UHGV virus genome: UHGV-0072281
DNA: 64,000 nt
Direction: 5' to 3' (one strand)
Source of the DNA: a virus
Each line of letters opens with the position of its first letter. The first letter of the stretch is position 1. This document shows positions 13,407-45,338 of the stretch, piece after piece. Under the pieces are notes generated by a model, which had not been told where the DNA came from, did no database searches, and saw only the letters and a program-made list of their open reading frames with translations. The position numbers and the translations under genes are program-made.

Positions 13407-14141
13407 ATGACATACCCGAAAACGATTCAACCCACCTTACCGACGCTGGTAATTGGTGCTGACGCAGAAACCAAATCACTGCGTCCTGATGCGTATTTGT
13501 TAACCACAGGCTTAGTTGCCTTTGACGTACCGACTTTAAAAATGGTAGGGTCGTCGTATATGCGTATTGATCCTAACGACCCTAAAGCAAAAGCTGTGTT
13601 CCACGAAGACCCGCAAACCGTGGGGTGGTGGGAAGGTAAAGGAGAACCTGAATACGCACCGTCTCGTGAAGCCTACACGGAAGCATGGGGTGGTACAACT
13701 CCTATGCCGGAAGCGCTGTGGGCAATGCGGAAGTGGTTAGACGAAATCACCGGCAAACACAATTTCGTTATTACCATGCGTGGGCCAGATTTCGATTCTC
13801 CAATTTTCATGAACGCGTTCGCACAATGTGACGTCCCTCCAGGTAAGTTCCGTAAGTTTAGTGCGTTAGACAGCGACCGCACCGCAGAGCGTTTAGCGCT
13901 GGCGTTTGGTTTTGAGCCTGACTTGACCGTTGAGCAAGTTTACTGGACGCGGGGTAAACCGGCATTTGAACACCATGCTTTGTGGGACGCTGCGAAAGAA
14001 GCGTACACCACCGCACGTATTTATCACCTTGCACTGATTACCCGCGAGTATGGGTACGAACGTGCTAAAGCCTGTCACGAAGAACTGAAAACCGGTGAGT
14101 ATATTCCACCACAGATTCGTGATCAGTTAACCAGGGATTAA
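13407..14141 (+). CDS. DnaQ-like DEDDh 3'-5' exonuclease
   Basis: Exo I-like LVIGADAET, Exo II-like GPDFDSPIF, Exo III HHALWDA (H-x-A-x-x-D). Confidence 0.55.
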   Translation: MTYPKTIQPTLPTLVIGADAETKSLRPDAYLLTTGLVAFDVPTLKMVGSSYMRIDPNDPKAKAVFHEDPQTVGWWEGKGEPEYAPSREAYTEAWGGTTPMPEALWAMRKWLDEITGKHNFVITMRGPDFDSPIFMNAFAQCDVPPGKFRKFSALDSDRTAERLALAFGFEPDLTVEQVYWTRGKPAFEHHALWDAAKEAYTTARIYHLALITREYGYERAKACHEELKTGEYIPPQIRDQLTRD

Positions 14142-18715: not shown

Positions 18716-19648
18716 ATGTATTTGTACAAAAGTAAAAAAGTAAAAGGTATTAAAGACTGCCTTAGACAAATGGGGAGTCAGCATCTAGAAAATGTCATGG
18801 AAGAAAATCAAACAAAAGAAAATCCTGTCTCGAAATGGATAAAAAAGAATCGTAATCATCTAACCAATAGCTTTATACCGTATAATGAAGATTTAGGTCT
18901 CAAAGATCCACGTTCCCTTCACGCTCAAACATTGGCAATTGGATGGCTATACGGTGGTTCTTCCTTAATATCCGATCGAGCACTTAGAGAACTTGTTTTT
19001 GAGACTGAGATGCCCAGTAAATTCCCTGAAGAGTGGTTAGACTTTATACCTACTTGGACTGTAGCAATCGATGTAGGTAAAGAAGATGAGACTTTCTTTC
19101 TCGGCTATCGAAAAAATGGGAAGAGAAGGTTTATTATAATTGCTACAAATACTGATTACGGGTTAACAGAAGGCGTTACCACGATTGCCACTTGTTCGTT
19201 AGAGCTTCGTAGTGCAGGAAACGGACTTGTGGAAATCGACTATGCCGACGGTGTGGAGAACGAACAAGAAAAGATGCTATGGTTATCTCTGGCCAAAGCC
19301 GCCACATCGATGATATTTCTGTGCACCCTAATCCCACCTAATCTCAAAGCGTCTTACAATGACGTTAAGTTCAAAGAAATCAAAAAGAACGGCAGTATTA
19401 GCTACGAAGTCAAACCACGTGAACGTGATGTTAAAGTGGATATCACACCAGGACAAGTAAAATATCTGAAAGGATTCAACACCGACTTGAAAGCCATGCA
19501 AGGTATCAAACACGCTAAAGCTGCGCACATTCGTCGTGCCCACTGGCGTAGATACTGGGTTGGCCCAAGAAACGGTGAAAGAAAAAGAAAACTTTGCTGG
19601 ATTCCACCGACATTTGTTCGCGGCTACGTACCCCACACGCAAGACTAG
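18716..19648 (+). CDS. hypothetical protein, paralog family B, conserved basic C-terminal HIRRAHWRR motif
   Basis: C-terminus KAAHIRRAHWRRYWVGP...W.PP.F; internal LGWLYGG..ISD segment shared with next gene. Confidence 0.55.
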   Translation: MYLYKSKKVKGIKDCLRQMGSQHLENVMEENQTKENPVSKWIKKNRNHLTNSFIPYNEDLGLKDPRSLHAQTLAIGWLYGGSSLISDRALRELVFETEMPSKFPEEWLDFIPTWTVAIDVGKEDETFFLGYRKNGKRRFIIIATNTDYGLTEGVTTIATCSLELRSAGNGLVEIDYADGVENEQEKMLWLSLAKAATSMIFLCTLIPPNLKASYNDVKFKEIKKNGSISYEVKPRERDVKVDITPGQVKYLKGFNTDLKAMQGIKHAKAAHIRRAHWRRYWVGPRNGERKRKLCWIPPTFVRGYVPHTQD

Positions 19649-19658
19649 GAGAATTATA

Positions 19659-20543
19659 ATGTTAAGACGCAGAATTTATGGAGACACGCTTCGACGTATT
19701 AGTGAAGCTATAGAGACTGCACACAAAGACTTGTTTGGTCTGAAAGAAGATCGTTTTCTAACGTTTGTCAGGGAACACAAGAGGCAACTTCCCGTAACCT
19801 TTCTGCCCGTTAACGACCCAACGTACCGTGTGTTCGGCACCACCAAACAGGTGCCGTATTCTATCCGTCAATCGTTAGGTTTGGGCTGGCAATACGCAGG
19901 TATTGAAATTATCTCTGATAACGAGTTGATGGCGTTACTTGCAGACACTGAACGTTTAACGGATATTCCGTACGCGTGGATTGAAGCCATCCCTTCGTTC
20001 ACCTTTTCCGTGACTGTCAAGATTAACGAACTTCCTGCTACACTCTTTATCGGTCGTCGTAAATTCGAAGGTGAAGAAGTATTGTTCGTTTTACGATGGG
20101 TGGAGATAAATCAGCGGCACTGTTGGACAACCAAGATTTATCGGTTCAACAGAAAGGCAGATGACTTTGTTAGTTTAGAGCCTTACTTTGCTAACGAGTC
20201 AAAGGACGAGGAACTTCTGGATGAGGTACATATCGGTTTATATCTTTCCTCGCGGGTGAAGAAATCAGAACGCGAGCGACGGGAATACCGTGGTAGAACG
20301 ACACGTTACGTACCTGATACAGAAATCCTTCCACGCAGAGAACCTGTCGTTGTTGACGTAAGTCCAGTACAACGCGAAGACTTAGAGAAACAACGCAGGG
20401 AAGGCAGGAGAATCTGTTTAACGCCGCATCGCGCAGCACACATACGCAGGGCACATTGGAAACGGGTCTGGTGTGGGCCAATGACAGGCCCACGCTGGCA
20501 GGAGTGGCGATGGATTGCACCCGCCTTTATTTCCGGATTTTAG
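19659..20543 (+). CDS. hypothetical protein, paralog family B
   Basis: C-terminus RAAHIRRAHWKRVWCGP...W.AP.F; start moved to internal ATG 19659 with AGGAG RBS (track start 19536 overlaps upstream gene). Confidence 0.55.
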   Translation: MLRRRIYGDTLRRISEAIETAHKDLFGLKEDRFLTFVREHKRQLPVTFLPVNDPTYRVFGTTKQVPYSIRQSLGLGWQYAGIEIISDNELMALLADTERLTDIPYAWIEAIPSFTFSVTVKINELPATLFIGRRKFEGEEVLFVLRWVEINQRHCWTTKIYRFNRKADDFVSLEPYFANESKDEELLDEVHIGLYLSSRVKKSERERREYRGRTTRYVPDTEILPRREPVVVDVSPVQREDLEKQRREGRRICLTPHRAAHIRRAHWKRVWCGPMTGPRWQEWRWIAPAFISGF

Positions 20544-20560: not shown

Positions 20561-20607
20561 CCCCTAGACCTTGTGGTCTAGGGGTAGCTTTTACTTTTTA
20601 TTTTTTG
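20561..20607. terminator. bidirectional terminator (cccctagacc ttgt ggtctagggg + T-run) between convergent genes
   Basis: perfect 10-bp stem; T-run overlaps stop of minus gene. Confidence 0.6.
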
Positions 20608-21353
20608 TTTGCCTTCAGAGCTTTCAGGCGTTCAGCCGTCACGTTCAGACATTCAATCAATTCGTTCACCTGTTTCATGAACAAACCAAACAGTTCAACC
20701 CAATCGGATGCAAAGTCTAACATCGCTGTCAGTTCTTTTGCCACGTTAGGATGAATGTTTTGTTCAGACAGAATCGTTGCAGAGGCTTTAATAGACTCGA
20801 TGGATTTGTCGATGTTCGTACGAAGTTTCTTCGTGATTTCAACGTTCAGTGCTTTTGCGCGGTTAAACGCAATATCGATCTCCGTAGCACTGTGGTACGT
20901 TTTCTCAATCGGGCGCTGGTCAATAACGTTGTTGGTGTAAGACTTAGCCAACTGGTTAACCAGGTCTTTCGGATTCACGTTACGTAACGGAATGTTAACG
21001 TTTTTATAACGGAAACCGATAGGTAATGACAGTACGCCCACATCATGTGTAAGGGCGGAAAGTTGCAACTCAACAGGTAAAAGGACACCGTCGTAGATCT
21101 TCTGTAGGGAACTCCACACCGATTCTAAGCGGTTAATGTGATCCATTACATAGGTATTGAAGCCTGGCGGTACAATAACCAACATGCCTGCAAAGTGTAA
21201 GAATTTTTCCTGTTGCATCCACTTGGAAACGTCTGACATGTCGTCGTAAGTGGTTAATGCAATCTCTTGTTGAGGGCCACTGAACCCTTTGGGTAAGATT
21301 GCAGACGCTTTAGCGGCAAAGCTAGTTAACGCTGCAAGTGGATTTACGTTCAT
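20598..21353 (-). CDS. hypothetical protein
   Basis: 251-aa minus-strand ORF, divergent from the recombinase operon. Confidence 0.5.
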   Translation of the reverse strand: MNVNPLAALTSFAAKASAILPKGFSGPQQEIALTTYDDMSDVSKWMQQEKFLHFAGMLVIVPPGFNTYVMDHINRLESVWSSLQKIYDGVLLPVELQLSALTHDVGVLSLPIGFRYKNVNIPLRNVNPKDLVNQLAKSYTNNVIDQRPIEKTYHSATEIDIAFNRAKALNVEITKKLRTNIDKSIESIKASATILSEQNIHPNVAKELTAMLDFASDWVELFGLFMKQVNELIECLNVTAERLKALKANKK

Positions 21354-21450: not shown

Positions 21451-21750
21451 ATGAAAATCAAATTACTGACTCGAAACACCACGCCTCGTCTGGAACCGGA
21501 AATCTATCTTACCCCGGTGAAAAAAGACAAAGAAGGTAAGCCTATTCAAGTAGGTAAGATTCTTAGCGTGACCTCTTTACCTAACGGTAAGCGCGTGATG
21601 GAATTAGAAATCGACGAGCGCAACAAACGTCGTTTCGAGTCTATTGAGAACCCCTATCCTGAAAAATCGGAAGAAGTCACCGAGTGGGCAGAGACCTACT
21701 TTGAATTCTGGCACAAACGTCGCCTTCTTCTTCCGACCAAGAATCGTTAA
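21451..21750 (+). CDS. hypothetical small protein
   Basis: 99-aa ORF preceding the recombinase. Confidence 0.45.
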   Translation: MKIKLLTRNTTPRLEPEIYLTPVKKDKEGKPIQVGKILSVTSLPNGKRVMELEIDERNKRRFESIENPYPEKSEEVTEWAETYFEFWHKRRLLLPTKNR

Positions 21751-21765
21751 TTATTGGAGCGCTAA

Positions 21766-23262
21766 ATGGCAGGCCCAACTAAGCAAGTTATCGGTGAAGT
21801 AATTCGTCCTCGTTTTAACGTTTATACCATCATGGACCACGCCTTAGGCAACTACGAAAGAGGCGAAGATGGTTTATACTACCTTAACGGTGGTTTTGCC
21901 CACATCATGGGTTTCGCGGGTCGTGGTAACACCTTCAAATCCACACTGTTGGATTTCTGTATCTTCCAAATCCTGCAACGCTATAAAGCAGAGTGGGGTT
22001 CGAAATACGATACCGAAGTGTCTGCTGCCCTCGATCGCTTAGAGACCGGTTATATTTCTGCCATGCACGCCAACGGTATTGACGATGGAACTTCGGTACT
22101 GGAACTTATTCACGAAGGTCGTTATAACCTCGTTGGTTCTGACGTGATGCCCGGGGAACAGTATTACAGTGACTATATTCGTGATGAAGTGGAAAAACGC
22201 TTCAAGCAGTATATGTCTGGTAAAACGCGTGTAACGCCGTTCCTTGACCCGGTTCGTCGTAAGCAAAAAGAAATCCTTGACCCGTGGCTGTATTCTATCG
22301 ACTCCCTGTCGGAGTGGCACTCGTCTTCTCTGGAAGACAAGCACGCTAAAACGGATATCGGTGATTCCGATCAGAACATCCTCAACGCCCACGACGCCTT
22401 ACAGAAATCGAACATGATGAGCCGTTGGCCGTCTGCGTTTGCCCGTGGTGGTTTCTACATGGGCTTTGTTGCACAGATGGCCGATGACTCCGGTAAGGCG
22501 ATGGCGGGCGGTCGTCAAGGGCAGAAAGCAAACGCGAAACTGCTGGACGATGCGAACGACGATCTCAAATTCGCAGGGATTCCTCGTCGTCAGTTAAGCT
22601 TCCTGACTAACTCGTTTATTGTTGCGACAAAATCAGGCGAGCTGAAAAAAGACCAGAGTTATAACGCCCAGACCGGTGTTAACGAAGAACTTTACCCAAC
22701 CGCACGTTCAAAAGCCATGAACGCATCGGTTAACGACCTGAAAGTTATCACCTTTACGCAGTACCGTGCTAAAGGTGGACACACGGGTGTGAAGTTCCAG
22801 ATGATCTTCTCGCAAGAGATGGGTCTACTGTACCACCTGAGCCTGTGGCATTACCTGAGTGACACTCTGAAAAAATCCGAATTTGGATTTACATCCAGCG
22901 GTAGCGGTGGTTCCATTAAAGAACTCCAGATTCTTCCTGGAGTTAAATTCCAGCGTACGACGATTCGCGACATGATCGACGATAACCCGAAACTGCGTCG
23001 GGCGTTAGAAATCACGGCCGCGATTGCGTACATGCAGAACAACTACCATCGTTTAGAGGTTAAATACCACCTCACGATGGAAGAAATCTACAAACTCATT
23101 GATGAAAAATGGGATTGGAATGAGATTCTGGAGAACACCGTAGAATACTGGATGTTTAAAGACCAAGAAACGAAAGGTGGTAAACGCACGTTAACTGCCC
23201 GTACGATTCTGGGTATGGTCGTGGACGGCCTGGAACCGAAGTTCCTCACCAAAAAGAAATAA
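21766..23262 (+). CDS. UvsX/RecA-like recombinase (divergent)
   Basis: unusual P-loop FAGRGNTFKS parallels T4 UvsX AGPSKSFKS (recalled); Walker-B-like LYSIDSLS; DIGDSD and AMAGGRQ parallel RecA EIGDSHMG and UvsX MGGGTG. Confidence 0.6.
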   Translation: MAGPTKQVIGEVIRPRFNVYTIMDHALGNYERGEDGLYYLNGGFAHIMGFAGRGNTFKSTLLDFCIFQILQRYKAEWGSKYDTEVSAALDRLETGYISAMHANGIDDGTSVLELIHEGRYNLVGSDVMPGEQYYSDYIRDEVEKRFKQYMSGKTRVTPFLDPVRRKQKEILDPWLYSIDSLSEWHSSSLEDKHAKTDIGDSDQNILNAHDALQKSNMMSRWPSAFARGGFYMGFVAQMADDSGKAMAGGRQGQKANAKLLDDANDDLKFAGIPRRQLSFLTNSFIVATKSGELKKDQSYNAQTGVNEELYPTARSKAMNASVNDLKVITFTQYRAKGGHTGVKFQMIFSQEMGLLYHLSLWHYLSDTLKKSEFGFTSSGSGGSIKELQILPGVKFQRTTIRDMIDDNPKLRRALEITAAIAYMQNNYHRLEVKYHLTMEEIYKLIDEKWDWNEILENTVEYWMFKDQETKGGKRTLTARTILGMVVDGLEPKFLTKKK

Positions 23263-23270
23263 AAGCGTTA

Positions 23271-23291
23271 GGGTAGGGGATTACCCTACCC
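23271..23291 (+). other. intergenic stem-loop (gggtaggg gatta ccctaccc) without U-tract, directly before RBS
   Basis: read from sequence; may be processing/stability element or weak terminator. Confidence 0.3.
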
Positions 23292-23307
23292 TAGCTAAGG
23301 AGTCGTT

Positions 23308-23607
23308 ATGCGTTATCAAACGGAGATTGTGGAGCGCTTAAGCGAAGGTTTAGCCAGCGTCAGTCTGGAAACAGCAGCGGCATTTCGTGAGACTTTCGCT
23401 ACTTTCTTTCCCGATCGTGAATCTTTTTGTTTAAAGGTCGGTGAATATTATTCCAAGTTACTCGAACACTACGGTTACCCGCCGGTGAAATTCGACGTAC
23501 CTGAAAACACCGACGACATCAGTTATTGGATTGAAACCCTCGAAGCAGGGACACTTTCCAACTTGCGTAAGGCGGTAGAAAATGAAACTCGATCCAGCGC
23601 GGCGTAA
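23308..23607 (+). CDS. hypothetical small protein
   Basis: 99-aa ORF with AAGGAG RBS. Confidence 0.5.
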   Translation: MRYQTEIVERLSEGLASVSLETAAAFRETFATFFPDRESFCLKVGEYYSKLLEHYGYPPVKFDVPENTDDISYWIETLEAGTLSNLRKAVENETRSSAA

Positions 23608-24250
23608 AAAAGCAGAAGCTTACGCCTTACAAATCTTAAACCTGGTTGACCCCTCTGGGATTAACGCAGAGGCAGCAAAGAAAGCTTTTGCTCGAATGAC
23701 AGACGAACAGTTTAATCGTCTTCGTGAAGGGCTACCGATTTACAACCCGGTTGGCAGTAAAGTTAAAATAGACCACATGCGAAACGTTGAGCTATGTCGC
23801 GTTTTAGGTCTGAACCTGGAACAGCGGTTGTGGTTAACTGAGCCGAAAACGGGTGTTTTCCATCGTACCCGCTACCCACATCTGGTATTGCGCTTGCCTG
23901 CGCGTCGACAAACGCAGATGCAAGAAAAGAAAATGGCAGTAGCGAAGAACGACAAAGTTCGTGATAAACTCTCCGGTCAGGTTGTGGGTCCTTCTAAAGC
24001 ATCAGGTGTATCTTTCCCAGAAGCGTACATCATGTACTCGGATGGCCACGACTGGACACTGAAAGAGTTTCTGTGGGCGCGTGGGGGTAACGAAGCGTTA
24101 CAACGTGCGTTCTATCAATCGTTACGTCAAACCGGTAAGGGACGTATTGACCTACCAGGGGCAGAACGTACCAGTTCAAAAGCAACACGTACCTGGTCTG
24201 CGTATCTGAAAGCGATGCACATTGGTAACAACATAGGCCATCCGTCATGA
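23582..24250 (+). CDS. hypothetical protein
   Basis: 222-aa ORF, overlaps upstream by 26 nt. Confidence 0.45.
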   Translation: MKLDPARRKKAEAYALQILNLVDPSGINAEAAKKAFARMTDEQFNRLREGLPIYNPVGSKVKIDHMRNVELCRVLGLNLEQRLWLTEPKTGVFHRTRYPHLVLRLPARRQTQMQEKKMAVAKNDKVRDKLSGQVVGPSKASGVSFPEAYIMYSDGHDWTLKEFLWARGGNEALQRAFYQSLRQTGKGRIDLPGAERTSSKATRTWSAYLKAMHIGNNIGHPS

Positions 24251-35957: not shown

Positions 35958-38159
35958 TTATCGCGCTTGCGGTAGGAAGATGTTCGCGATTTGTCGTGCC
36001 GGGATAACATCCAACGCAGCGTTGATGAAACTCCCCTGCGACCACGCAGATGCCCAGTTCTGCGCCCAGATAGAAGCGTTAATCTTAGCGCGGGCGATAC
36101 CGTTAGTACGTTCGTACAACGTAGCACCACCTAAACACGCCATAAACTCACTGAACTTGTTATCGTCATCCCAGACCTTAGTGTCGGTCACAATCGGCAT
36201 GTACATGACGCGAGTCAAATCACGAATAGTAACAGAAATATCGCAGGACAGTGGAACACTATCACCAGGACGCCAACCTAGACCACCTACACCGAACTGT
36301 AAGGACATCGACGTTACCATTGCATTACGGAACGAGAAACGTCCTTGAGAGTAACACTCTAAGTAAAACGGATGGGTAAAGGTTTGTTTACCGGTTGCGA
36401 TCGGACACACTGCTGCAATCCAAAACGAGAGCGGGACTAACAAATCCTGGAAAATGTCCAGGTCGTTACCCGACCAACAACGTAAAGGAATGGTTAAAGT
36501 AATGTCATCTCCCGATGCGTCAGAACTATCCCAGACTTCTGGGAAGTCTATCACTGAGGAGTTGTACAACGACATTATCCCCGTCAAATGTAGGGTGTCT
36601 GCAACGCCTCGCATCGCTGACTTAATACCGGAAACTAAAGCATCGACCGCACTAAAACCGGTTTGACCGCCAGACAGGTTAACTTCCAGCGAACGTGCTT
36701 TTGCTGTTGCGGAGTTTACCATCCCGGAAATTTCAGGTTCTTTCGTGGAGTTAGAGAACGAACGCGAAACGGTGTCTTTACCGTCAATACGCCAAGTAAC
36801 CCACTGTGAACCGTTCTTAATCTCCGACAAGACGTTATCGCCAACGTCTGCAACCATATCGGTAAACTCTTTAAAGAACGTTCCTACTTTGGATTCATCT
36901 TTACCTTTGTTCATCCAATCTTGAACTTCAGCAATATCTCCTTCGGTAAGATCTTCTGGATTCTTTTCATCCAACGTAGAGTTCAGCTGCTTAGCTGCCG
37001 CTGCACGTTTCTCCATAGCCTGACGGGTTTTCTCCTGCTCTGACTGAATCTCTGCTGCTCGCTGCTGTAATTCAGTAGCAGTCCCCCCGACCACCAAGCT
37101 ATTACTCATCTGGCCAATCAATTGGTCTTCCTGAGTATCAATGTCCTGTATAGAGGAGGCATACCCACCCTTTTCACTTCTGGCAACTTTCTCCAAGTCG
37201 TATAACGAAACTTCAAATCCTTCTGCTTTCTGTCGTACACGATCGCTATAAGTAGCATTATAGTAAAACGCGCGCAAACGACTGGCAAACAACTCTTCAT
37301 CGTCGCCGGATTCTACACGAATCATATCGATGGTTTTAGCCTGATAGTTCGCCAAGGTCTGGTAACGGTTAATCATTCGGTAAATGTCAAACTCACCATT
37401 CGCTTTCCAGACTTCTGGTAAGGATTTATACCACTCTTCACGATCTTTATGGTAGCTATTTTCTTTGCTTTCGGTATCGTAACCCAACGCAAAAGTCCCT
37501 AACACACCCGTTGGCACTAAACGACGATAAATTAGCTGGGTGTTCAGGATGTTTTGCACAGCGCGTAAATACAGATGCATTGCGGGCTTAACGTAATAGT
37601 ATCTTGACGTTTCTTTATTCAGTGCTGCCGAAAGAATCCTCGGTGTAATCAGAATCACCGCGAATGCTACAGTACCAACCGTCGCCCAAATAGCGGCCGC
37701 ACCGATATACGAAGCTGCTGTTCGAATAATTCCTGGATAGTCACCTGTACGTGCGAGGTATGCCAGGTTAGAATCGTACATGTTCGCAAAGAACGAAGCC
37801 ATACCCAGATACTTCGGCTTACCGAAACGACAATGAACGTAAAATGAGTTTTGGCTAATGCTTTCGTAGTAATACGTCCCTAAACGATAAGACCCTGCGG
37901 CTGAGGAGTTATAAAAGGATTCACTACCGCTCTTAGTCGCATCGGGTTGTGCAAACGCGCCTGTTGAGGAAGGGTCTGCAAAAAGTGTAAACTGGGGCGG
38001 ACTATTAATCGCTTTACTGCCACCGACTGTGGTGTCTTCAAACGACAACATACCACCGGAATAGCGGCGCAAGGCCAGGAAACGTTCATCTCGACCATCG
38101 ACTGCGCCATTAAATAGGTTTTTGACCCAGCTTGAGTCGTTAACTGTTCTAGCGTCCAC
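35958..38159 (-). CDS. hypothetical large protein (733 aa, probably structural)
   Basis: long ORF directly downstream of the giant gene on the same strand. Confidence 0.55.
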   Translation of the reverse strand: MDARTVNDSSWVKNLFNGAVDGRDERFLALRRYSGGMLSFEDTTVGGSKAINSPPQFTLFADPSSTGAFAQPDATKSGSESFYNSSAAGSYRLGTYYYESISQNSFYVHCRFGKPKYLGMASFFANMYDSNLAYLARTGDYPGIIRTAASYIGAAAIWATVGTVAFAVILITPRILSAALNKETSRYYYVKPAMHLYLRAVQNILNTQLIYRRLVPTGVLGTFALGYDTESKENSYHKDREEWYKSLPEVWKANGEFDIYRMINRYQTLANYQAKTIDMIRVESGDDEELFASRLRAFYYNATYSDRVRQKAEGFEVSLYDLEKVARSEKGGYASSIQDIDTQEDQLIGQMSNSLVVGGTATELQQRAAEIQSEQEKTRQAMEKRAAAAKQLNSTLDEKNPEDLTEGDIAEVQDWMNKGKDESKVGTFFKEFTDMVADVGDNVLSEIKNGSQWVTWRIDGKDTVSRSFSNSTKEPEISGMVNSATAKARSLEVNLSGGQTGFSAVDALVSGIKSAMRGVADTLHLTGIMSLYNSSVIDFPEVWDSSDASGDDITLTIPLRCWSGNDLDIFQDLLVPLSFWIAAVCPIATGKQTFTHPFYLECYSQGRFSFRNAMVTSMSLQFGVGGLGWRPGDSVPLSCDISVTIRDLTRVMYMPIVTDTKVWDDDNKFSEFMACLGGATLYERTNGIARAKINASIWAQNWASAWSQGSFINAALDVIPARQIANIFLPQAR

Positions 38160-38204
38160 TTTCTACCTCTTTAAGATGGGGGTGGTTTCCCACCCCCGTG
38201 TTTA

Positions 38205-41200
38205 TTAACCCGCACGTCTAACGTTAAGCTGTCGTGCTGGCTGTTCAACGGACATTTGTCGTGATGCTGAGCCTGCTGGTGCCATAGGTTGGGTCGATAC
38301 GGTGTTTTGTACCGGCTGCGGACGTTGTTTAAGAATCGTGACAATCTCTCTGAGATACCCCGCCGATTCTTTCGCAACAGCCAACTGCTGGACACTAATC
38401 GGATCACCGCTACTGAGTGTAGGCCCGTTTTGTGCATCAGAAGTAACCGCAGGTGCCGGTTTACTCGTTGCTGCTACGCGCTGCACAGCGCCTTCTTTCA
38501 CCTTCTCGACATCTTCTTCAGGCAACCCTTCGTTTCTAGCTCCAGCCGCAACGGTCTCCGCAATCGTAGAGGCGTCGCCGCCAGCACTACTACCGCCAGG
38601 TGACGGTACTGCCGGACCACCACTGGTTGCAGCTTTGACATTGTCTGCACCCATCGCACCTTTCTCTGCTAACGCATCGTCACGACGCGCAGCATTCGAT
38701 GCGGGCAAGTTATCCGTCGCTCCAGAAATTGATGGATCGTTAGCTGCTCCTGCTGCTACCGCTGGAGAGGAGGCAACCGCAGGCGTTAGCCCTTTCACCA
38801 TGTCTTTCGTTGAAGCTGGGTTAGCCGCAATTTCGTTTGTCGCCACAGCACCCATACGGCGGTTCAGTTCATTAATAACTTCGCCAACAGTACGAATACG
38901 AACAATCTGTTCGCCTCGCATTTCGTAGAAGACTCCCTTATTACCTCTAAGGATTTGAGGAGTAATACCTTCTGCTTTGTCGGCTGGCATGTTCGGATTC
39001 TGCCGCCATGCATTAAGGAACTTCTTACCACCGCCTGGACCCAAGAAGTGATACAGATACGCAACAGCCGGGGGCGGTTCTACACCACCCAGGTCTTTCT
39101 GCGCCTGCATGATATTATCACGAATAAACTGTACCCCGAGGATGGTATTTGCCCACGGGTCATACTGGTTTACTTGCGGAATACCGTACCGACGAGAATA
39201 CCCCTTCATCATTCCAGACCACGTACTGTCGATGAACTGGAACAACCCTGCTGCTGACGCACCTGGGTTCTTGACGCCGTATCTGAAACCAGATTCAGCT
39301 TTCGCCATCGCAATCGCAATCGCAGGCGGAACACCTAAGGTATTTGCGACATCTGCAATCATTGCTTTAACGCCTTCTACGTTAGGTGTCTTACCACTAC
39401 CCAGTTTACTGATTGGATATTTCTCAGCCAAGGTTTTGTAATCACCTTCTTTGACGTCCCCGAGTTTAATCCCGGATTGGCCCGTAGAGAACTTCGCGTA
39501 ATTGCTGATCCCCATCTCACCCACAACTTGAGATAAGTCACCCGGTGTACCGTAAGACGACCCACCGTTTGGCAAGTACCCATCGTTAGACGCTGTACCC
39601 CAATCAACGACACCTTTAAAGCGTTCTTTGCCATCTTCGTCGGTTTGGTACATTCTCGTCGCACGATCGGCTTTCTGCCACTTCGCACGTTTACCTGCTG
39701 CGGGAGTAGAGCGCAGGGTGTTACGAACAGCCAGGTCAGGTTCTTTTGACAGTTCTTTCAGGTTGGCAAGTTCAGTAGCAACAGAACCTGCATCAGTGTT
39801 TGCTTCCTCGCCTAGCGGGTTGAATGGAATCTCCCACACGGACTGTCGAATACCGCCCTTCATGTTGTAAGCGCCACGAATCATCAACGCCAATTCGTAC
39901 ATGAACCCACCGGATACTTTCAATTCGGTAGGGTCTGCTTGCGGAATGTAACGTTTCAGACCAACGACGTAGGTCATATACGCCGGTAAGAAACGGTTGT
40001 AGAACCAGTTCTTACAACGCTCCTCTTTAGGACCACCTATCAAGTCAGGCGAGATAACCGCAATGGCTTCTTTCCAGTTGCCTTTATAGGTACAGTTCTT
40101 CACATCAATGTCTTTCAACACGTTCTTCTCTAACAACGTGAAAAGATTACGCGTTGTTTGGTTGATAGTAACCGCACCGTAGGTTTTCCACCTGACCGAT
40201 TCCAGGTCTTCCAAATCGCTTTTCTTCGGTAATGAATGCCAGTCAACTTGGATTTGAACCTGCTCAGTCCCGTCTTCCCATCCTTCAACCTTCGCAACTT
40301 TCTCGTTACGTTCAGCATCCGCATTCGCCAATACCTGACTGGTTTCAGCAACGGACGCAATTTTGTGGCCTTCGACAGCGTCACGCATACCTGAACGTTG
40401 TTTCCGTTTGTCGTCAGTACGCATGTTGATTGACCGCCACACACGTTCCTGTGCTTCGACAACCTCTTCCCCTGACAAGAACTCTGCCGGAGTAAAGGTA
40501 ACGAAATCCCACGCTTTAGAGAACCAACCCTGGTTAACTTTACGCGGGTCAGTCAACGAACGGAATTCCGCAGAATCTTTACCCATCTTCATTTTGTTGT
40601 AGAGGGTAATCATATCCGCTTTCGACACTTTCTTCGGATCACCAACATCTGCCAAAGCGATATCGTTATCCATAGACTTCAGTGCTGAAATCCAACGGAG
40701 GTAAATCGGTGCGAAACGTTGTAACATAAACGCAGTAAATGCTAACATCTCACCACGTTCTTCCAAGTTTACACCAAACCCTTCTGCGAGTTTCTTCACG
40801 TCTTCGGAAGACAAGCCACGTAATTGTGCTTCACCCCCTTCGGTATACGAGACGTAAGGTTTCAAAGCGTCTTCTAAATAACGGGCTTTCATACCGTCTT
40901 CAGAAGACCACTGGTCGTAGTCACGGAAACCGTATTGTGCCAGACGCATATAGTCGAGGTACTGCGCTTTCACACGGGTAGCGCATTTATACGCCCAATA
41001 ACCCAGACCAGCGGCAGTCGCACCGATCACAATTGCAGGCCAACCCACCGCAGCTACCACCGTAGATGCAGCCGAGGCTACCGCAGTCACCGCCGGAACC
41101 GCTAAACGCTGTACGGCAAACTTACCAACATTCCACGCTGCTTTACCGAGGAACCCGGTAGGTTTAAAAATACCCCACTTCGCAACTTTACCCAGTATGG

Positions 41201-44200
41201 AACCCACCGTACCTAAGATACTCACGATTGGTCCTACCAACGGTAGCCCTTTGAGGAAGTCCATCACCCCGCCTTTACGTCCTTTCTGTTCGGCGGATTT
41301 CTTGGCTTTCTCTTCTTCCTTAGAACGTCTACGACGACGGAAGAATTGGAAGTAGTCGCGTTTTTCATCATTGGCTGCCGGTTTGTTACGTTGTCCGAAC
41401 TTACTGAACATCGTACGAATCAAGCCATCAGGCGCACCAGCACGTTCCGCAGAGTCGCGCATGGTGTTAAACCAGGACATTTCCTGGAGGTTAACCATCC
41501 GGTTTAAACGTTCCAGTAATGCTGAACCAACACTTTTCGCTTTCTGCTTACCTTTGTTGATAACGCGTCCTGCGCTATCCGTTGCGGTTTCGAAATCCTC
41601 TTTCGCTGCGTTAATCACGCGTGTTGGAGAAACCTTACCACGGGCGTATAAGTGTTGACGGTAAAACTCAGCAACGTCATCGTCACGGCCTGCTAAACGA
41701 GACTCCGTCCGATAGCGAGTACCGATATCGTAGCGTGGATCGCGGAAGCTATCTACCGTTTCGCCAAAGCGTCCACGGAAACGGTCAAACCAGCCTTTAC
41801 CCGCAGCACCCCAACGAGACAGTCTATCACCAACTCCCTGACGGAAACGTGAGAATCGGTCACGTTGTCTGCCTCGCCAATCCCGGAAATTCTGGAAATA
41901 GTCTTTAAACCCGTCGCGGAAATCCTTAACGCGGTTAAGCATCCCTTTGATAGATTTCGACCCAACGTTTTTCTCCAGTTGCTCCGTCCAGGATTCATCT
42001 TCAGGCTCACCATCTAAACGACGGTTAAGGAGTTTATAGATGCGAATCAGGATATGGTTGGTCTTACGGCCATTCGACCAGGAGAACATGCTGAAACCGC
42101 CGCCAGAACCCCCATCCTTACGATTCTGCCACCACCGGGTAAGCGGGTTGTCGGTCGCTAACTCTTTGAATTTCTCAAAGCCACGTTTTGCATTGTTCCA
42201 CAAACGAGCGGGCATTCCCGTTACACGGGAAATCATGCTTTGTAAACGTGTTTTCTCACTGCCTTCAGGAATCTCGTTAAGCCACTCACGTGCTTTCTCG
42301 AAGATAGACGCTGCTCTTGGTGAGATTAGACCAATAAGTTTCTTCGGTAAGTTAACGGCTTTGTTTACCGCTGTACCTGCTTTACCGGAGATATACTGGA
42401 ACAGGGCCTGGAGTTTACCGCCTTTATAGAAGCGCAGTTTACCCGCAGCCGCTAAGTCCGCCGCTGCGAGAATCAAGTTCCCGGCTTCGTCAACAATATC
42501 ACGACCCAGCTTAATGTCGTCTAACGAGCTGAGTTGTACCAGCTTGTTGGTTTTAGGGTCAGCCTGATAATACTCACCTGCCTCTAAACGGCTTCCTTGT
42601 AAAACAACATTGCCTTTCTCGTCGTAGATGTCTCGAACACCAAGAACGCCTTTCCCGAACGCTACTGCTGAATTCCAGCCTGTGGACAGCGTACCAGTAA
42701 CTAAACCTTTCAGTCGTTCAAAAACACCTGGACCGTCAGAAGACCCACCGGAGAATTTCCCACGGATAAAACTGCCCAGTGACTGTAAACGCCCTTTCCC
42801 TCTCAGGAACATGTTCTTCGCAAAACGACCAGCGCCCGTACCGGTGTCCCAAAGTACACCCGCCCAACGACGGAACAGCCCACTTTCACCAAGCACAATG
42901 CGCTTACGTTTGCGTTTGTTACCGGTACTACCCGCGTCTTCAGATGCGTCACCCTCACCGTCACGACCACCACCTAAGCTTGCCAACAGAATACCTTCTT
43001 CATCCATGTTCTTGACATGTTTCAGAATTTCCTGCACGGTGTTGGATTCGGATTTGTTACGGATAGCATCAACGATTCTATCAAACTGTTGCTCTAAACC
43101 CGCATTAGTGTCAGGCCGTTCGCTTAACAGTTCAACAAAGTTGGTGGATTTTTCACCGTAGAGGACAGCAGCAAGTTGTCGTGCTGACAGCCCACGGCCA
43201 CCACGTCCACCTTTACCTTTAACGGTGTCAATAGTCGACTCGTCACCGGTTACGGAAGCGTCTACACCCAAACGACGTAAGTAGTCACCTAGCGCAGAAC
43301 CGTTTTTCAGTTTGCGCTGGATTTCTTGCTCACGGGTTAACGAACGACCAGAGCGAGTTTTCCCCATGGCCAGGTCGTTGTATAGCGTATACGGATCGTT
43401 AATGTCTTTATCTACATCAAACCGATCGTTCTTCGCATCGTACTTAAAGATACCTGCGTCACGTAACGCATTCTCGCCGTAGATAATTGAGGCTTCGTCT
43501 ACCGTGTTTTGACGTGCACGAATTGTTGACTGAATAGCTGAAATCTTACCAGCAATCTCGTTGCTCAGTTCGTGATGACCGCCTGCCAGTTCTGAAGACC
43601 GTGCTTCTAAGACCGCCTGAATCGCTTCTACCGCGTTCGCATTCATGTAACGATACATGTGCATCGGGTCTTTCAGCAGACTGCCTACGTCGAATGCCTT
43701 ACCTTCAGACGCACGGGATTCGATATAGTCCGCCAGCGCCTGGCGAGTTTTCGAATCCAGAGTTTTGTCTTTGTCGATAAAGTCAACGGTTTCGTTAATG
43801 TACTGCTGTAAACGTTTACGCTGTTCGTCATTAGCAACTGCCTTACGTACGCGATTGCCAATAACTTTACGATCCACCATACCTCGCGTGGTCAGGTCAT
43901 AAACCTGATCGTGGTGTTCGCCATATCCACGACGAATAGATTTGTTAATCTCCGTCAGCAAGGTCGGGATGACTTCCGTGATGCTAAGATATGCTTTACG
44001 GTCGAACTTCGCTGCTGCTGATAACGCCTCTGCTGAACGTTCTTCTAAAGCTAATCCCTCACGACGCAGCGGTGTCACTAACCCCATCTCGTGCATTAAA
44101 CGGAAGACAGTGGCCAATGGACCATCTATCTCACCAGCAATCGCTGAGTTAGAGATAGAAGATAAGTTACCGAACCCGTAGCGTGCCAACTGAAGCCGTT

Positions 44201-45338
44201 TCATGACTTCTGGGTTCTTTTCTAACTCACTGCGTGTCCAGTTCTGTAAACGTTCTACTTGCGGTTGTAAGAATCGTTTTGCTAACCAACCACCGGCAAA
44301 CCCTACGACTTTACCTCGGCTATTCGTACGACGACGTTCTGGCGACAGTGAAGAACTGTCTTCCATGTCGAAGTCGTCTTCCTGACCCATTGACAGAACT
44401 TGTTCTAATAGCCCACGTCCGTCACTGAAGATATTCGAAATCTTTTTCTTCGCGTTCTCACGGATTTGTTCAACGAACGAATCTGCGTAACGTAAGGGGT
44501 TCATCCATTCGGCAGCTTTACGTTTTACGTTAGCCCAACGAATTTCAGAGAATTCCTCTTTTGCATAATCCGGCAACGCGGTGTTTTTAACAATCGCTTC
44601 AAGTGCCGGAGTGTTACGGCTAAACTCGTCCTGTTTAAGTTTAGCAATATCTTGCAACGCGAATAACGTACGGTATTGCAGCTCTAGCTGTTTACGCTGA
44701 ACGTTAAGCATCACCCCACGACTTAAACTGGTCGTCAGGTTAACGTCTTTCGCAATACCGATAACCGTCTGGAACAGCGCATCGGACTTCATGTCCTTGA
44801 TGGTGTCACGAAGACGGTCTTCTACCATCCCTTCCTGAACTTCACGTTGCTGTTCAGGTGTTTGTGGGGTACCCGCAAAAACAGTGTCTAACTCACGATC
44901 CATTAATGCCTGTTTAGGATCGTAATTCCCGTAATCGTACTGGTCGCTTTTCGCCCATTTATCGATCTTACGGGTTACACTGTCAGGCAAATACCGTTTT
45001 AGGGTTGGGCCTAATTGACGAGCTTGTGCCTTCACCACGCGGGAGGTCTTTTCAATCTCGTCTTTCGTATGGGCCAGAATGTCTTGACCTGCGGCTTTGA
45101 CGTTCTTATAACCTTCATAAGCGTCAGACGCCGGTTTTGGCATTCCTTTTAAAATGACCTGATCACGTTTATTTTCGGGCCAGATAGTCGACAATGCCGA
45201 CTTACGGGCAGCACGAAATGTGTCCATGACCGGGTTACGCGATTGGTCTTGTTGACGAGGGGGCTCATCAAAATCGTCCCAGTCGTCCATGTTATCAAGA
45301 TCGATTTCATCGAAATCGTCTTTACCTTTTTTAGCCAT
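38205..45338 (-). CDS. giant virion-type protein (2377 aa) with lytic transglycosylase (SLT) domain, TM segments and low-complexity regions
   Basis: SLT motif AKAESGFRYGVKNPGASAAGLFQFIDSTW (about 38900-39330); hydrophobic block LPLVGPIVSILGTVGSILG...AIVIGATAAGLGYWAY (about 40980-41290); acidic N-terminus DDFDEIDLDNMDDWDDFDE; Arg-rich repeats; Ala/Pro/Ser-rich C-terminus. Confidence 0.7.
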   Translation of the reverse strand: MAKKGKDDFDEIDLDNMDDWDDFDEPPRQQDQSRNPVMDTFRAARKSALSTIWPENKRDQVILKGMPKPASDAYEGYKNVKAAGQDILAHTKDEIEKTSRVVKAQARQLGPTLKRYLPDSVTRKIDKWAKSDQYDYGNYDPKQALMDRELDTVFAGTPQTPEQQREVQEGMVEDRLRDTIKDMKSDALFQTVIGIAKDVNLTTSLSRGVMLNVQRKQLELQYRTLFALQDIAKLKQDEFSRNTPALEAIVKNTALPDYAKEEFSEIRWANVKRKAAEWMNPLRYADSFVEQIRENAKKKISNIFSDGRGLLEQVLSMGQEDDFDMEDSSSLSPERRRTNSRGKVVGFAGGWLAKRFLQPQVERLQNWTRSELEKNPEVMKRLQLARYGFGNLSSISNSAIAGEIDGPLATVFRLMHEMGLVTPLRREGLALEERSAEALSAAAKFDRKAYLSITEVIPTLLTEINKSIRRGYGEHHDQVYDLTTRGMVDRKVIGNRVRKAVANDEQRKRLQQYINETVDFIDKDKTLDSKTRQALADYIESRASEGKAFDVGSLLKDPMHMYRYMNANAVEAIQAVLEARSSELAGGHHELSNEIAGKISAIQSTIRARQNTVDEASIIYGENALRDAGIFKYDAKNDRFDVDKDINDPYTLYNDLAMGKTRSGRSLTREQEIQRKLKNGSALGDYLRRLGVDASVTGDESTIDTVKGKGGRGGRGLSARQLAAVLYGEKSTNFVELLSERPDTNAGLEQQFDRIVDAIRNKSESNTVQEILKHVKNMDEEGILLASLGGGRDGEGDASEDAGSTGNKRKRKRIVLGESGLFRRWAGVLWDTGTGAGRFAKNMFLRGKGRLQSLGSFIRGKFSGGSSDGPGVFERLKGLVTGTLSTGWNSAVAFGKGVLGVRDIYDEKGNVVLQGSRLEAGEYYQADPKTNKLVQLSSLDDIKLGRDIVDEAGNLILAAADLAAAGKLRFYKGGKLQALFQYISGKAGTAVNKAVNLPKKLIGLISPRAASIFEKAREWLNEIPEGSEKTRLQSMISRVTGMPARLWNNAKRGFEKFKELATDNPLTRWWQNRKDGGSGGGFSMFSWSNGRKTNHILIRIYKLLNRRLDGEPEDESWTEQLEKNVGSKSIKGMLNRVKDFRDGFKDYFQNFRDWRGRQRDRFSRFRQGVGDRLSRWGAAGKGWFDRFRGRFGETVDSFRDPRYDIGTRYRTESRLAGRDDDVAEFYRQHLYARGKVSPTRVINAAKEDFETATDSAGRVINKGKQKAKSVGSALLERLNRMVNLQEMSWFNTMRDSAERAGAPDGLIRTMFSKFGQRNKPAANDEKRDYFQFFRRRRRSKEEEKAKKSAEQKGRKGGVMDFLKGLPLVGPIVSILGTVGSILGKVAKWGIFKPTGFLGKAAWNVGKFAVQRLAVPAVTAVASAASTVVAAVGWPAIVIGATAAGLGYWAYKCATRVKAQYLDYMRLAQYGFRDYDQWSSEDGMKARYLEDALKPYVSYTEGGEAQLRGLSSEDVKKLAEGFGVNLEERGEMLAFTAFMLQRFAPIYLRWISALKSMDNDIALADVGDPKKVSKADMITLYNKMKMGKDSAEFRSLTDPRKVNQGWFSKAWDFVTFTPAEFLSGEEVVEAQERVWRSINMRTDDKRKQRSGMRDAVEGHKIASVAETSQVLANADAERNEKVAKVEGWEDGTEQVQIQVDWHSLPKKSDLEDLESVRWKTYGAVTINQTTRNLFTLLEKNVLKDIDVKNCTYKGNWKEAIAVISPDLIGGPKEERCKNWFYNRFLPAYMTYVVGLKRYIPQADPTELKVSGGFMYELALMIRGAYNMKGGIRQSVWEIPFNPLGEEANTDAGSVATELANLKELSKEPDLAVRNTLRSTPAAGKRAKWQKADRATRMYQTDEDGKERFKGVVDWGTASNDGYLPNGGSSYGTPGDLSQVVGEMGISNYAKFSTGQSGIKLGDVKEGDYKTLAEKYPISKLGSGKTPNVEGVKAMIADVANTLGVPPAIAIAMAKAESGFRYGVKNPGASAAGLFQFIDSTWSGMMKGYSRRYGIPQVNQYDPWANTILGVQFIRDNIMQAQKDLGGVEPPPAVAYLYHFLGPGGGKKFLNAWRQNPNMPADKAEGITPQILRGNKGVFYEMRGEQIVRIRTVGEVINELNRRMGAVATNEIAANPASTKDMVKGLTPAVASSPAVAAGAANDPSISGATDNLPASNAARRDDALAEKGAMGADNVKAATSGGPAVPSPGGSSAGGDASTIAETVAAGARNEGLPEEDVEKVKEGAVQRVAATSKPAPAVTSDAQNGPTLSSGDPISVQQLAVAKESAGYLREIVTILKQRPQPVQNTVSTQPMAPAGSASRQMSVEQPARQLNVRRAG

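Follow-up and report, generated by a model that had tools for sequence, protein, structure and literature searches.

Nucleus-forming jumbo phages (Chimalliviridae) all carry a very divergent recombinase of the RecA/UvsX type. The gene described here, at positions 21766 to 23262 on the plus strand of a 64,000-nucleotide stretch of the virus genome UHGV-0072281 (the whole of this stretch is called the window below), very probably encodes another. The family is already known and has been studied genetically. Its member in Salmonella phage SPN3US, gp216, was named a diverged UvsX homologue in 2017 (PMC5694885), and the record of 201phi2-1 describes gp237 as "hypothetical uvsX; similar to phiKZ gp152 and EL gp173." PhiPA3 gp175 is the nuclear "RecA" employed in proximity labelling (PMC10643120), and a fusion of green fluorescent protein to Asesino gp238 goes to the phage nucleus (PMC11724907). 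The phiKZ protein gp152 (Nlp1) takes fused EcoRI into the nucleus, an import that requires Imp1 together with Imp2, the latter specific to Pseudomonas phages (bioRxiv 10.1101/2024.03.27.586873). Without nlp1, phiKZ forms small plaques, competes with an index of 0.05 and becomes sensitive to NucC, a nuclease of the cyclic-oligonucleotide-based anti-phage signalling system (CBASS); the authors read this phenotype as lost recombinational repair (PMC12676376). The UvsX of PCH45 (Gp72) is nuclear and non-essential, and figures among the non-essential core genes discussed for that phage (bioRxiv 10.64898/2025.12.19.695335). A comparative study noted that many jumbo phages carry a RecA homologue, and that UvsY and UvsW, the partners of T4 UvsX, are confined to the T4-like ones of group 2; because of this restriction, neither partner is expected with the window protein (PMC7824862).

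Membership in the Chimalliviridae UvsX-like family

On sequence grounds the window protein is an orthologue of phiKZ gp152/Nlp1, PhiPA3 gp175, 201phi2-1 gp237, SPN3US gp216, PCH45 Gp72 and Asesino gp238, the last a close one. Homology to the nuclear UvsX/RecA-like proteins of Chimalliviridae extends over the full length, and both the gene neighbourhood and the architecture, with all its insertions, are the same. The gene shares 76% DNA and 81% protein identity with the homologue of SPN3US and its relatives, and about 80% amino acid identity with the protein annotated as "putative UvsX" in Asesino and Stratton, two Erskinevirus phages of Erwinia. By tblastn, homologues are also detected in phiKZ-like phages (27% identity over 98% of the length, E ~1e-31) and in 201phi2-1 (gp237, 23% identity over 95% of the length, E = 3e-23). 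The tblastn matches fall in 300 phage records, essentially all from phiKZ-like or Chimalliviridae jumbo phages, with hosts that include Pseudomonas, Erwinia, Salmonella, Vibrio, Serratia, Aeromonas, Klebsiella and Ralstonia. A search of 1.84 billion proteins with the family profile returned 863 cluster representatives at E <= 0.001 (509 at E <= 1e-30), nearly all of them 460-535 amino acids (aa) long. Judged by this profile, which does not spill over into RecA or UvsX, the family is large and closed. An identical protein is encoded on seven metagenome-assembled contigs. For the 24 kb around the gene, coverage by any phage of the collection stays within 17%, at about 74% nucleotide identity; the window therefore comes from an undescribed relative of the SPN3US/Asesino-like nucleus-forming jumbo phages. 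Its UvsX-like protein adds one ordinary example to an established family.

Recognition of the protein as a recombinase comes from one sequence library and from the predicted fold. PHROGs is the sole library to recognise it, through phrog_97, "UvsX-like recombinase" (1.3e-54), a family that also takes in T4 UvsX (9.4e-105) and 201phi2-1 gp237 (4.4e-52). When the predicted model of the window protein is compared with known structures (scores are Z), it shows a RecA-fold ATPase core whose nearest structural relatives are recombinases: RecA (3cmu, Z 25.0, 301 residues aligned with a root-mean-square deviation of 3.3; 8amd, Z 22.3), phage UvsX (9gbg, Z 19.4), the T4 UvsX core (3io5, Z 18.6), and the RAD51 paralogues, Rad51 and DMC1 (Z 16-18). 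That RecA scores above UvsX in this model search should carry little weight, the UvsX crystal structures being truncated cores. The best matches (3cmu, 8amd, 7jy6) are RecA chains from active filaments, and none are rings. Models of jumbo-phage "UvsX" proteins in BFVD superpose over the full length, with template modelling (TM) scores of 0.80-0.87 at 24% identity. The protein is best filed in the Chimalliviridae UvsX-like family, taken to work like RecA and UvsX, and not as a T4-type UvsX. Two classical marks of RecA and UvsX are lacking in it: none of the curated sequence models matches, and there is no N-terminal helix.

Some family members have unusual gene structures. The 773-aa homologue P0182, a predicted gene model, carries an ATP-dependent DNA ligase (PF01068 + PF14743, residues 11-261) ahead of its UvsX-like domain (residues 285-759), a fusion that, as predicted, fits a role in DNA repair. 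In other predicted gene models the N-terminus is extended by about 140-240 aa that have no assigned family (P0021-P0024, 635 aa; P0197, 716 aa). In the Salmonella phage records SPFM1, 5, 6, 8, 9, 10, 12, 14 and 15 (LR535901-LR535913) the gene appears as short or fragmented matches, with odd proteins of 280-477 aa, and sister SPFM records have it intact; the fragments look like the product of frameshift-rich assemblies rather than biology.

ATPase motifs, insertions and N-terminus

Conservation was counted in an alignment of 34 homologues, with identity down to 26%. Motifs were mapped from their exact positions in three sequences (the window protein, RecA and T4 UvsX, the last translated from NC_000866, 391 aa), from hhalign alignments, and from the secondary structure of the model (Table 1). 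All of the mapped positions are invariant in the family, position 237 excepted. The first-pass annotation of this DNA had picked out a P-loop with Phe-Lys-Ser as in T4 UvsX, and the comparison bears this out: residues 50-60 read FAGRGNTFKST, and the T4 protein has GPSKSFKS at residues 60-67. In bacterial RecA (E. coli; PDB 3CMU/7JY6), to which the window protein is 13-15% identical, the canonical GK[ST] stands in place of FKS. G52, G54, N55 and K58 are invariant (34 of 34), F57 is found in 33, and position 59 is Ser or Thr throughout; the unusual P-loop is a conserved trait and no chance match. T4 UvsX is an active ATPase, and the Phe that the two proteins have in common would be a lineage trait and no sign of inactivity.

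D82 and E84 are invariant, hhalign places YDTE opposite the YDSE of UvsX, and E84 lies 26 residues past K58, where the expected spacing in the class is about 24-26 residues. Walker B lies on a strand of the model (LYSIDS, 174-179), with D179 and S180 invariant across the 34. The L1-equivalent region, placed by comparison with GDSHMG of RecA, has invariant G199 and N204 and a nearly invariant K214; by analogy it may bind DNA. Position 237, the sensor counterpart, is His in 29 of the 34 homologues, as in T4 UvsX, whereas the RecA-like Gln of the window protein and its nearest clade is found in five. The L2-equivalent loop, twice as long as that of RecA, has a few residues more in the window protein than in the rest of the family; K258 and L260 in it are invariant, and residues 241-258 are disordered in the model, with a pLDDT (predicted local distance difference test score) below 50. 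In the hairpin further on, R334, K336, G341 and Q350 are invariant, and the basic pair ends strand 325-335 of the model. The succession of strand, basic-x-basic, loop, strand and Gly-containing turn is common to the window protein, RecA and UvsX, and in the latter two the basic pair reaches into the ATP site of the neighbouring subunit. Going by this motif pattern, and not by superposed coordinates, R334 and K336 would be the equivalent pair; their invariance argues for a RecA-type ATP site between subunits, at which they would act in trans.

At 498 aa, the window protein exceeds T4 UvsX (PDB 3IO5; PF00154 + PF21134) by 107 residues, close to the hundred that the first-pass annotation had estimated, which fall into four insertions inside the chain and an extended C-terminal part; relative to bacterial RecA about 145 residues are extra. 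Measured against UvsX from motif to motif, the change is -8 from the N-terminus to the Walker A Lys, 0 from there to the catalytic Glu, +44 from the Glu to Walker B, +6 from Walker B to the sensor, +19 in the L2 loop (34 residues, where UvsX and RecA have 15-17), +27 from the end of L2 to the KxK hairpin (at about residues 293-324), and +19 from that hairpin to the C-terminal end. The first-pass annotation had put the extra segments between Walker A and Walker B and at the C-terminus. The former placement was right, but the C-terminus contributes only about a fifth, and the additions in L2 and in the sheet region had been overlooked. The N-terminus is shorter than that of UvsX. Between Glu and Walker B the model shows an extra helix (about residues 105-118) and a beta-hairpin (about 153-172), with a gap fraction of at most 0.09 and presence in 34 of 34 homologues. 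Every inserted segment occurs in all 34 (gap fraction at most 0.15) and the BFVD jumbo-phage models superpose over the full length; the insertions and the enlarged L2 are therefore traits of the family and no peculiarity of the window sequence.

The N-terminal difference of -8 is the sum of two changes, a 10-13-residue hairpin inserted at 29-41 and the loss of a helix of about 22 residues. Only 13 residues stand ahead of the conserved R-P-x-F-N segment, whose P15..N18 aligns with an invariant segment of UvsX, and about 22 N-terminal residues of UvsX have no counterpart. Most family representatives likewise begin at profile positions 1-16. Any role for the short tail can only be inferred.

Proposed mechanism and alternative readings

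The analysis shows a RecA-recombinase fold in the model, intact ATPase and putative trans-acting residues, and orthology to proteins that localise to the nucleus and whose deletion gives a recombination-type phenotype. Together these suggest how the protein may work. It would be made in the cytoplasm and then imported into the phage nucleus, where microscopy has placed its orthologues Asesino gp238, PhiPA3 gp175, phiKZ gp152 and PCH45 Gp72. There it would bind single-stranded DNA as an ATP-bound oligomer or filament, with ATP lodged between subunits, where one would contribute Lys58 of the P-loop, Glu84, Asp179 and Gln237 and its neighbour Arg334/Lys336, and with DNA held by the L1 loop and the enlarged L2 loop. 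Such a complex could carry out homology search and strand exchange, and could support recombination-dependent replication and the repair of broken phage DNA.

The first-pass description of the protein as a divergent UvsX/RecA-like recombinase is supported by phrog_97, the fold match and the conserved motifs. Alignment to UvsX and RecA profiles, which the same annotation had proposed as a check, gave a match to phrog_97 and none to the Pfam RecA/UvsX models. Several results weigh against the recombinase assignment. Pfam returns no RecA or UvsX match to the window protein at E <= 10 (only a sub-threshold esterase), NCBIfam nothing relevant (a sub-threshold urease only), and phmmer against all PDB chains nothing relevant; the 34-sequence family profile has zero matches among PDB chains at E <= 10. 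None of the 34 family members matches PF00154 (RecA) or PF21134 at E <= 1, whereas T4-type UvsX proteins all carry both, and a phmmer search with T4 UvsX picks up RecA at E-values of 1e-12 to 1e-15. By hhalign, the family aligns with a profile of 18 T4-type UvsX sequences at 37.8% probability over residues 40-90 (51 columns, spanning the P-loop and the YDTE/YDSE motif only), and with the single T4 UvsX sequence at 8.8%. Low-stringency local alignment brings Walker B and the sensor into register as well, without quotable confidence values. Past Walker A and the Glu, the motif equivalences are putative ones, drawn from pattern and modelled secondary structure and not from superposed coordinates. 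The model has no helix ahead of residue 21 in the place of the N-terminal polymerisation helix of RecA and UvsX, and a literature search found no report of ATPase activity, filaments or strand exchange for any family member.

These features could also mean that a RecA fold has been put to another use. The protein might form some other oligomer, such as a ring or dimer, and work in DNA annealing or remodelling (in the manner of Sak4, RadB or KaiC-type proteins), or its insertions might mainly serve import recognition. Consistent with this are the missing helix with some 22 UvsX residues unmatched, the four insertions and doubled L2 in every member, the isolation in sequence of 863 representatives that do not spill over into RecA, and the lack of biochemistry in the literature searched. 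Yet the invariant R334/K336 pair is useful only at a RecA-type subunit interface, the best structural matches are RecA filament chains and not rings, and the phiKZ delta-nlp1 phenotype resembles that of T4 uvsX mutants (PMC12676376); we consider a non-filament protein unlikely. Somewhat less improbable, though still speculative, is a further reading. With a short conserved tail in place of the helix, four insertions kept by all members and an L2 loop of double length, the family may assemble on DNA through a subunit interface unlike that of all studied RecA-type recombinases, or its insertions may be read by the nuclear import machinery. If the insertions are an import surface, the SPN3US-like clade would need an adaptor other than Imp2, since reports of phiKZ Imp2 are limited to Pseudomonas phages.

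A catalytically dead RecA relic, retained as a structural or cargo protein, would account for the non-canonical P-loop, where Phe replaces the second Gly, and for the non-essential orthologue in PCH45 (bioRxiv 10.64898/2025.12.19.695335). But the catalytic positions are all invariant in homologues down to 26% identity, loss of nlp1 costs phiKZ strongly in fitness (PMC12676376), and the Phe-Lys-Ser P-loop is also that of T4 UvsX, a working ATPase, which makes a relic highly improbable. The protein could in principle be a hexameric replicative helicase of the DnaB/gp4 type, or another non-recombinase P-loop ATPase, and a better match to such a helicase is what the first-pass annotation had named as evidence against its own reading. 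In the model search it is the recombinases that score higher: DnaB, T7 gp4, Twinkle and T4 gp41 reach Z 13.4-16.2, below RecA (25.0) and UvsX (18.6-19.4), and we give a helicase almost no credence.

As a probable RecA-superfamily recombinase, the window protein adds one sequence to a family already in standard use as a marker of phage-nucleus import and as its carrier. The by-product is a residue-level map, in which the ATPase and inter-subunit residues are kept, the helix is missing and the 107 extra residues are located, and which offers concrete targets for biochemistry on the family. Of wider interest are the putative filament interface, which would have to do without the N-terminal helix, and what the conserved insertions do.

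Coordinates and genomic neighbourhood

Table 1. Features of the putative recombinase gene and its neighbours, with predicted counterparts of residues in T4 UvsX and RecA
Feature	Position	Strand	T4 UvsX	RecA	Basis or remark
Rv2179c-like 3'-5' exonuclease-like gene	13407-14141	+			
RNase H-like gene, 503 aa	14144-15655	+			directly after the exonuclease gene
Minus-strand gene	20598-21353	-			
99-aa open reading frame (ORF) upstream of recombinase	21451-21750	+			phrog_10750, PHROG without assigned function
GGAG, Shine-Dalgarno-like	21756..21759	+			read from sequence; ATG 6 nt downstream
Recombinase coding sequence, 498 aa, RecA/UvsX-like	21766..23262	+			ORF list, homology, phrog_97, fold match
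Short N-terminal tail, aa 1-13, MAGPTKQVIGEVI	21766..21804	+			sits where RecA/UvsX have the N-terminal polymerisation helix
P-x-x-N segment, P15..N18			P37..N40		
Walker A/P-loop GRGNTFKS, aa 52-59, Lys58	21919..21942	+	K66	K72	conservation; aligns with UvsX GPSKSFKS
YDTE, aa 81-84, catalytic Glu counterpart Glu84	22006..22017	+	E92	E96	hhalign
Glu-to-Walker B insertions, family-specific, flanking helix D	22078..22281	+			inter-motif distances, model secondary structure
Walker B strand IDSLSE, aa 178-183, Asp179	22297..22314	+	D143	D144	matches UvsX IDSLGN, RecA VDSVAA
L1-equivalent region, aa 196-218, IGDS at 198-201	22351..22419	+		IGDS	IGDS as in RecA EIGDSHMG
Gamma-phosphate sensor counterpart Gln237	22474..22476	+	H195	Q194	low-stringency hhalign, in register with UvsX INHT
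Enlarged L2-equivalent loop, aa 238-270	22477..22575	+			Q237 to G271 = 34 residues
Gly after L2, G271			G210	G211	
Insertion in sheet region ahead of KxK hairpin, aa 293-324	22642..22737	+			+27 vs UvsX and RecA; D324 invariant
Beta-hairpin with Arg334, Lys336 (YRAKGG)	22738..22827	+	K246/R248	K248/K250	
C-terminal domain, aa 355-498, mostly helical	22828..23259	+			
Perfect 10-bp hairpin TAGGGTAGGG-GATTA-CCCTACCCTA	23269..23293	.			terminator scan and sequence
99-aa ORF downstream of recombinase	23308-23607	+			phrog_6181, PHROG without assigned function
Virion RNA polymerase beta-subunit piece	23582-24250				

The ATG start given in the program's ORF list is backed by the MAGP N-terminus, which is kept in homologues; the stop codon of the preceding 99-aa ORF is at 21750. 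The hairpin begins 7 nt past the stop codon, has no T-run on the plus strand, and is a probable transcript-end structure. In Asesino and SPLA1a the same place after the gene is taken by another GC hairpin, GGCGGG-GCAA-CCCGCC, with T5 behind it, so that the position is conserved and the sequence is not.

Gene order around the recombinase is kept in Asesino and SPLA1a and more loosely in 201phi2-1. A UvsY-like mediator was sought in the two flanking 99-aa ORFs, which gave only PHROGs without assigned function and no Pfam family. Both ORFs are present in Asesino and SPLA1a; in 201phi2-1 no small ORF is annotated immediately before gp237. The RNase H-domain protein upstream is the counterpart of phiKZ gp155/Nlp2, which is also a known nuclear cargo.

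Two adjacent plus-strand ORFs of about 300 aa each (18716-19648 and 19536-20543) are labelled PF26125, "AcrVA2-like," in the precomputed tables for the matching metagenome contig, a label not reproduced by a Pfam scan of both, which is empty at E <= 0.001; for the second, PHROGs gives only phrog_6160, which has no assigned function. Further along, a minus-strand ORF of 2377 aa (38205-45338) is adjoined by ORFs of 733 aa (minus strand) and 1388 aa (plus strand), and all three probably encode large virion proteins. The ORF of 2377 aa lies in a block (36000-44000) where the GC content is 0.49-0.51, compared with about 0.45, and the GC skew is strongly negative.
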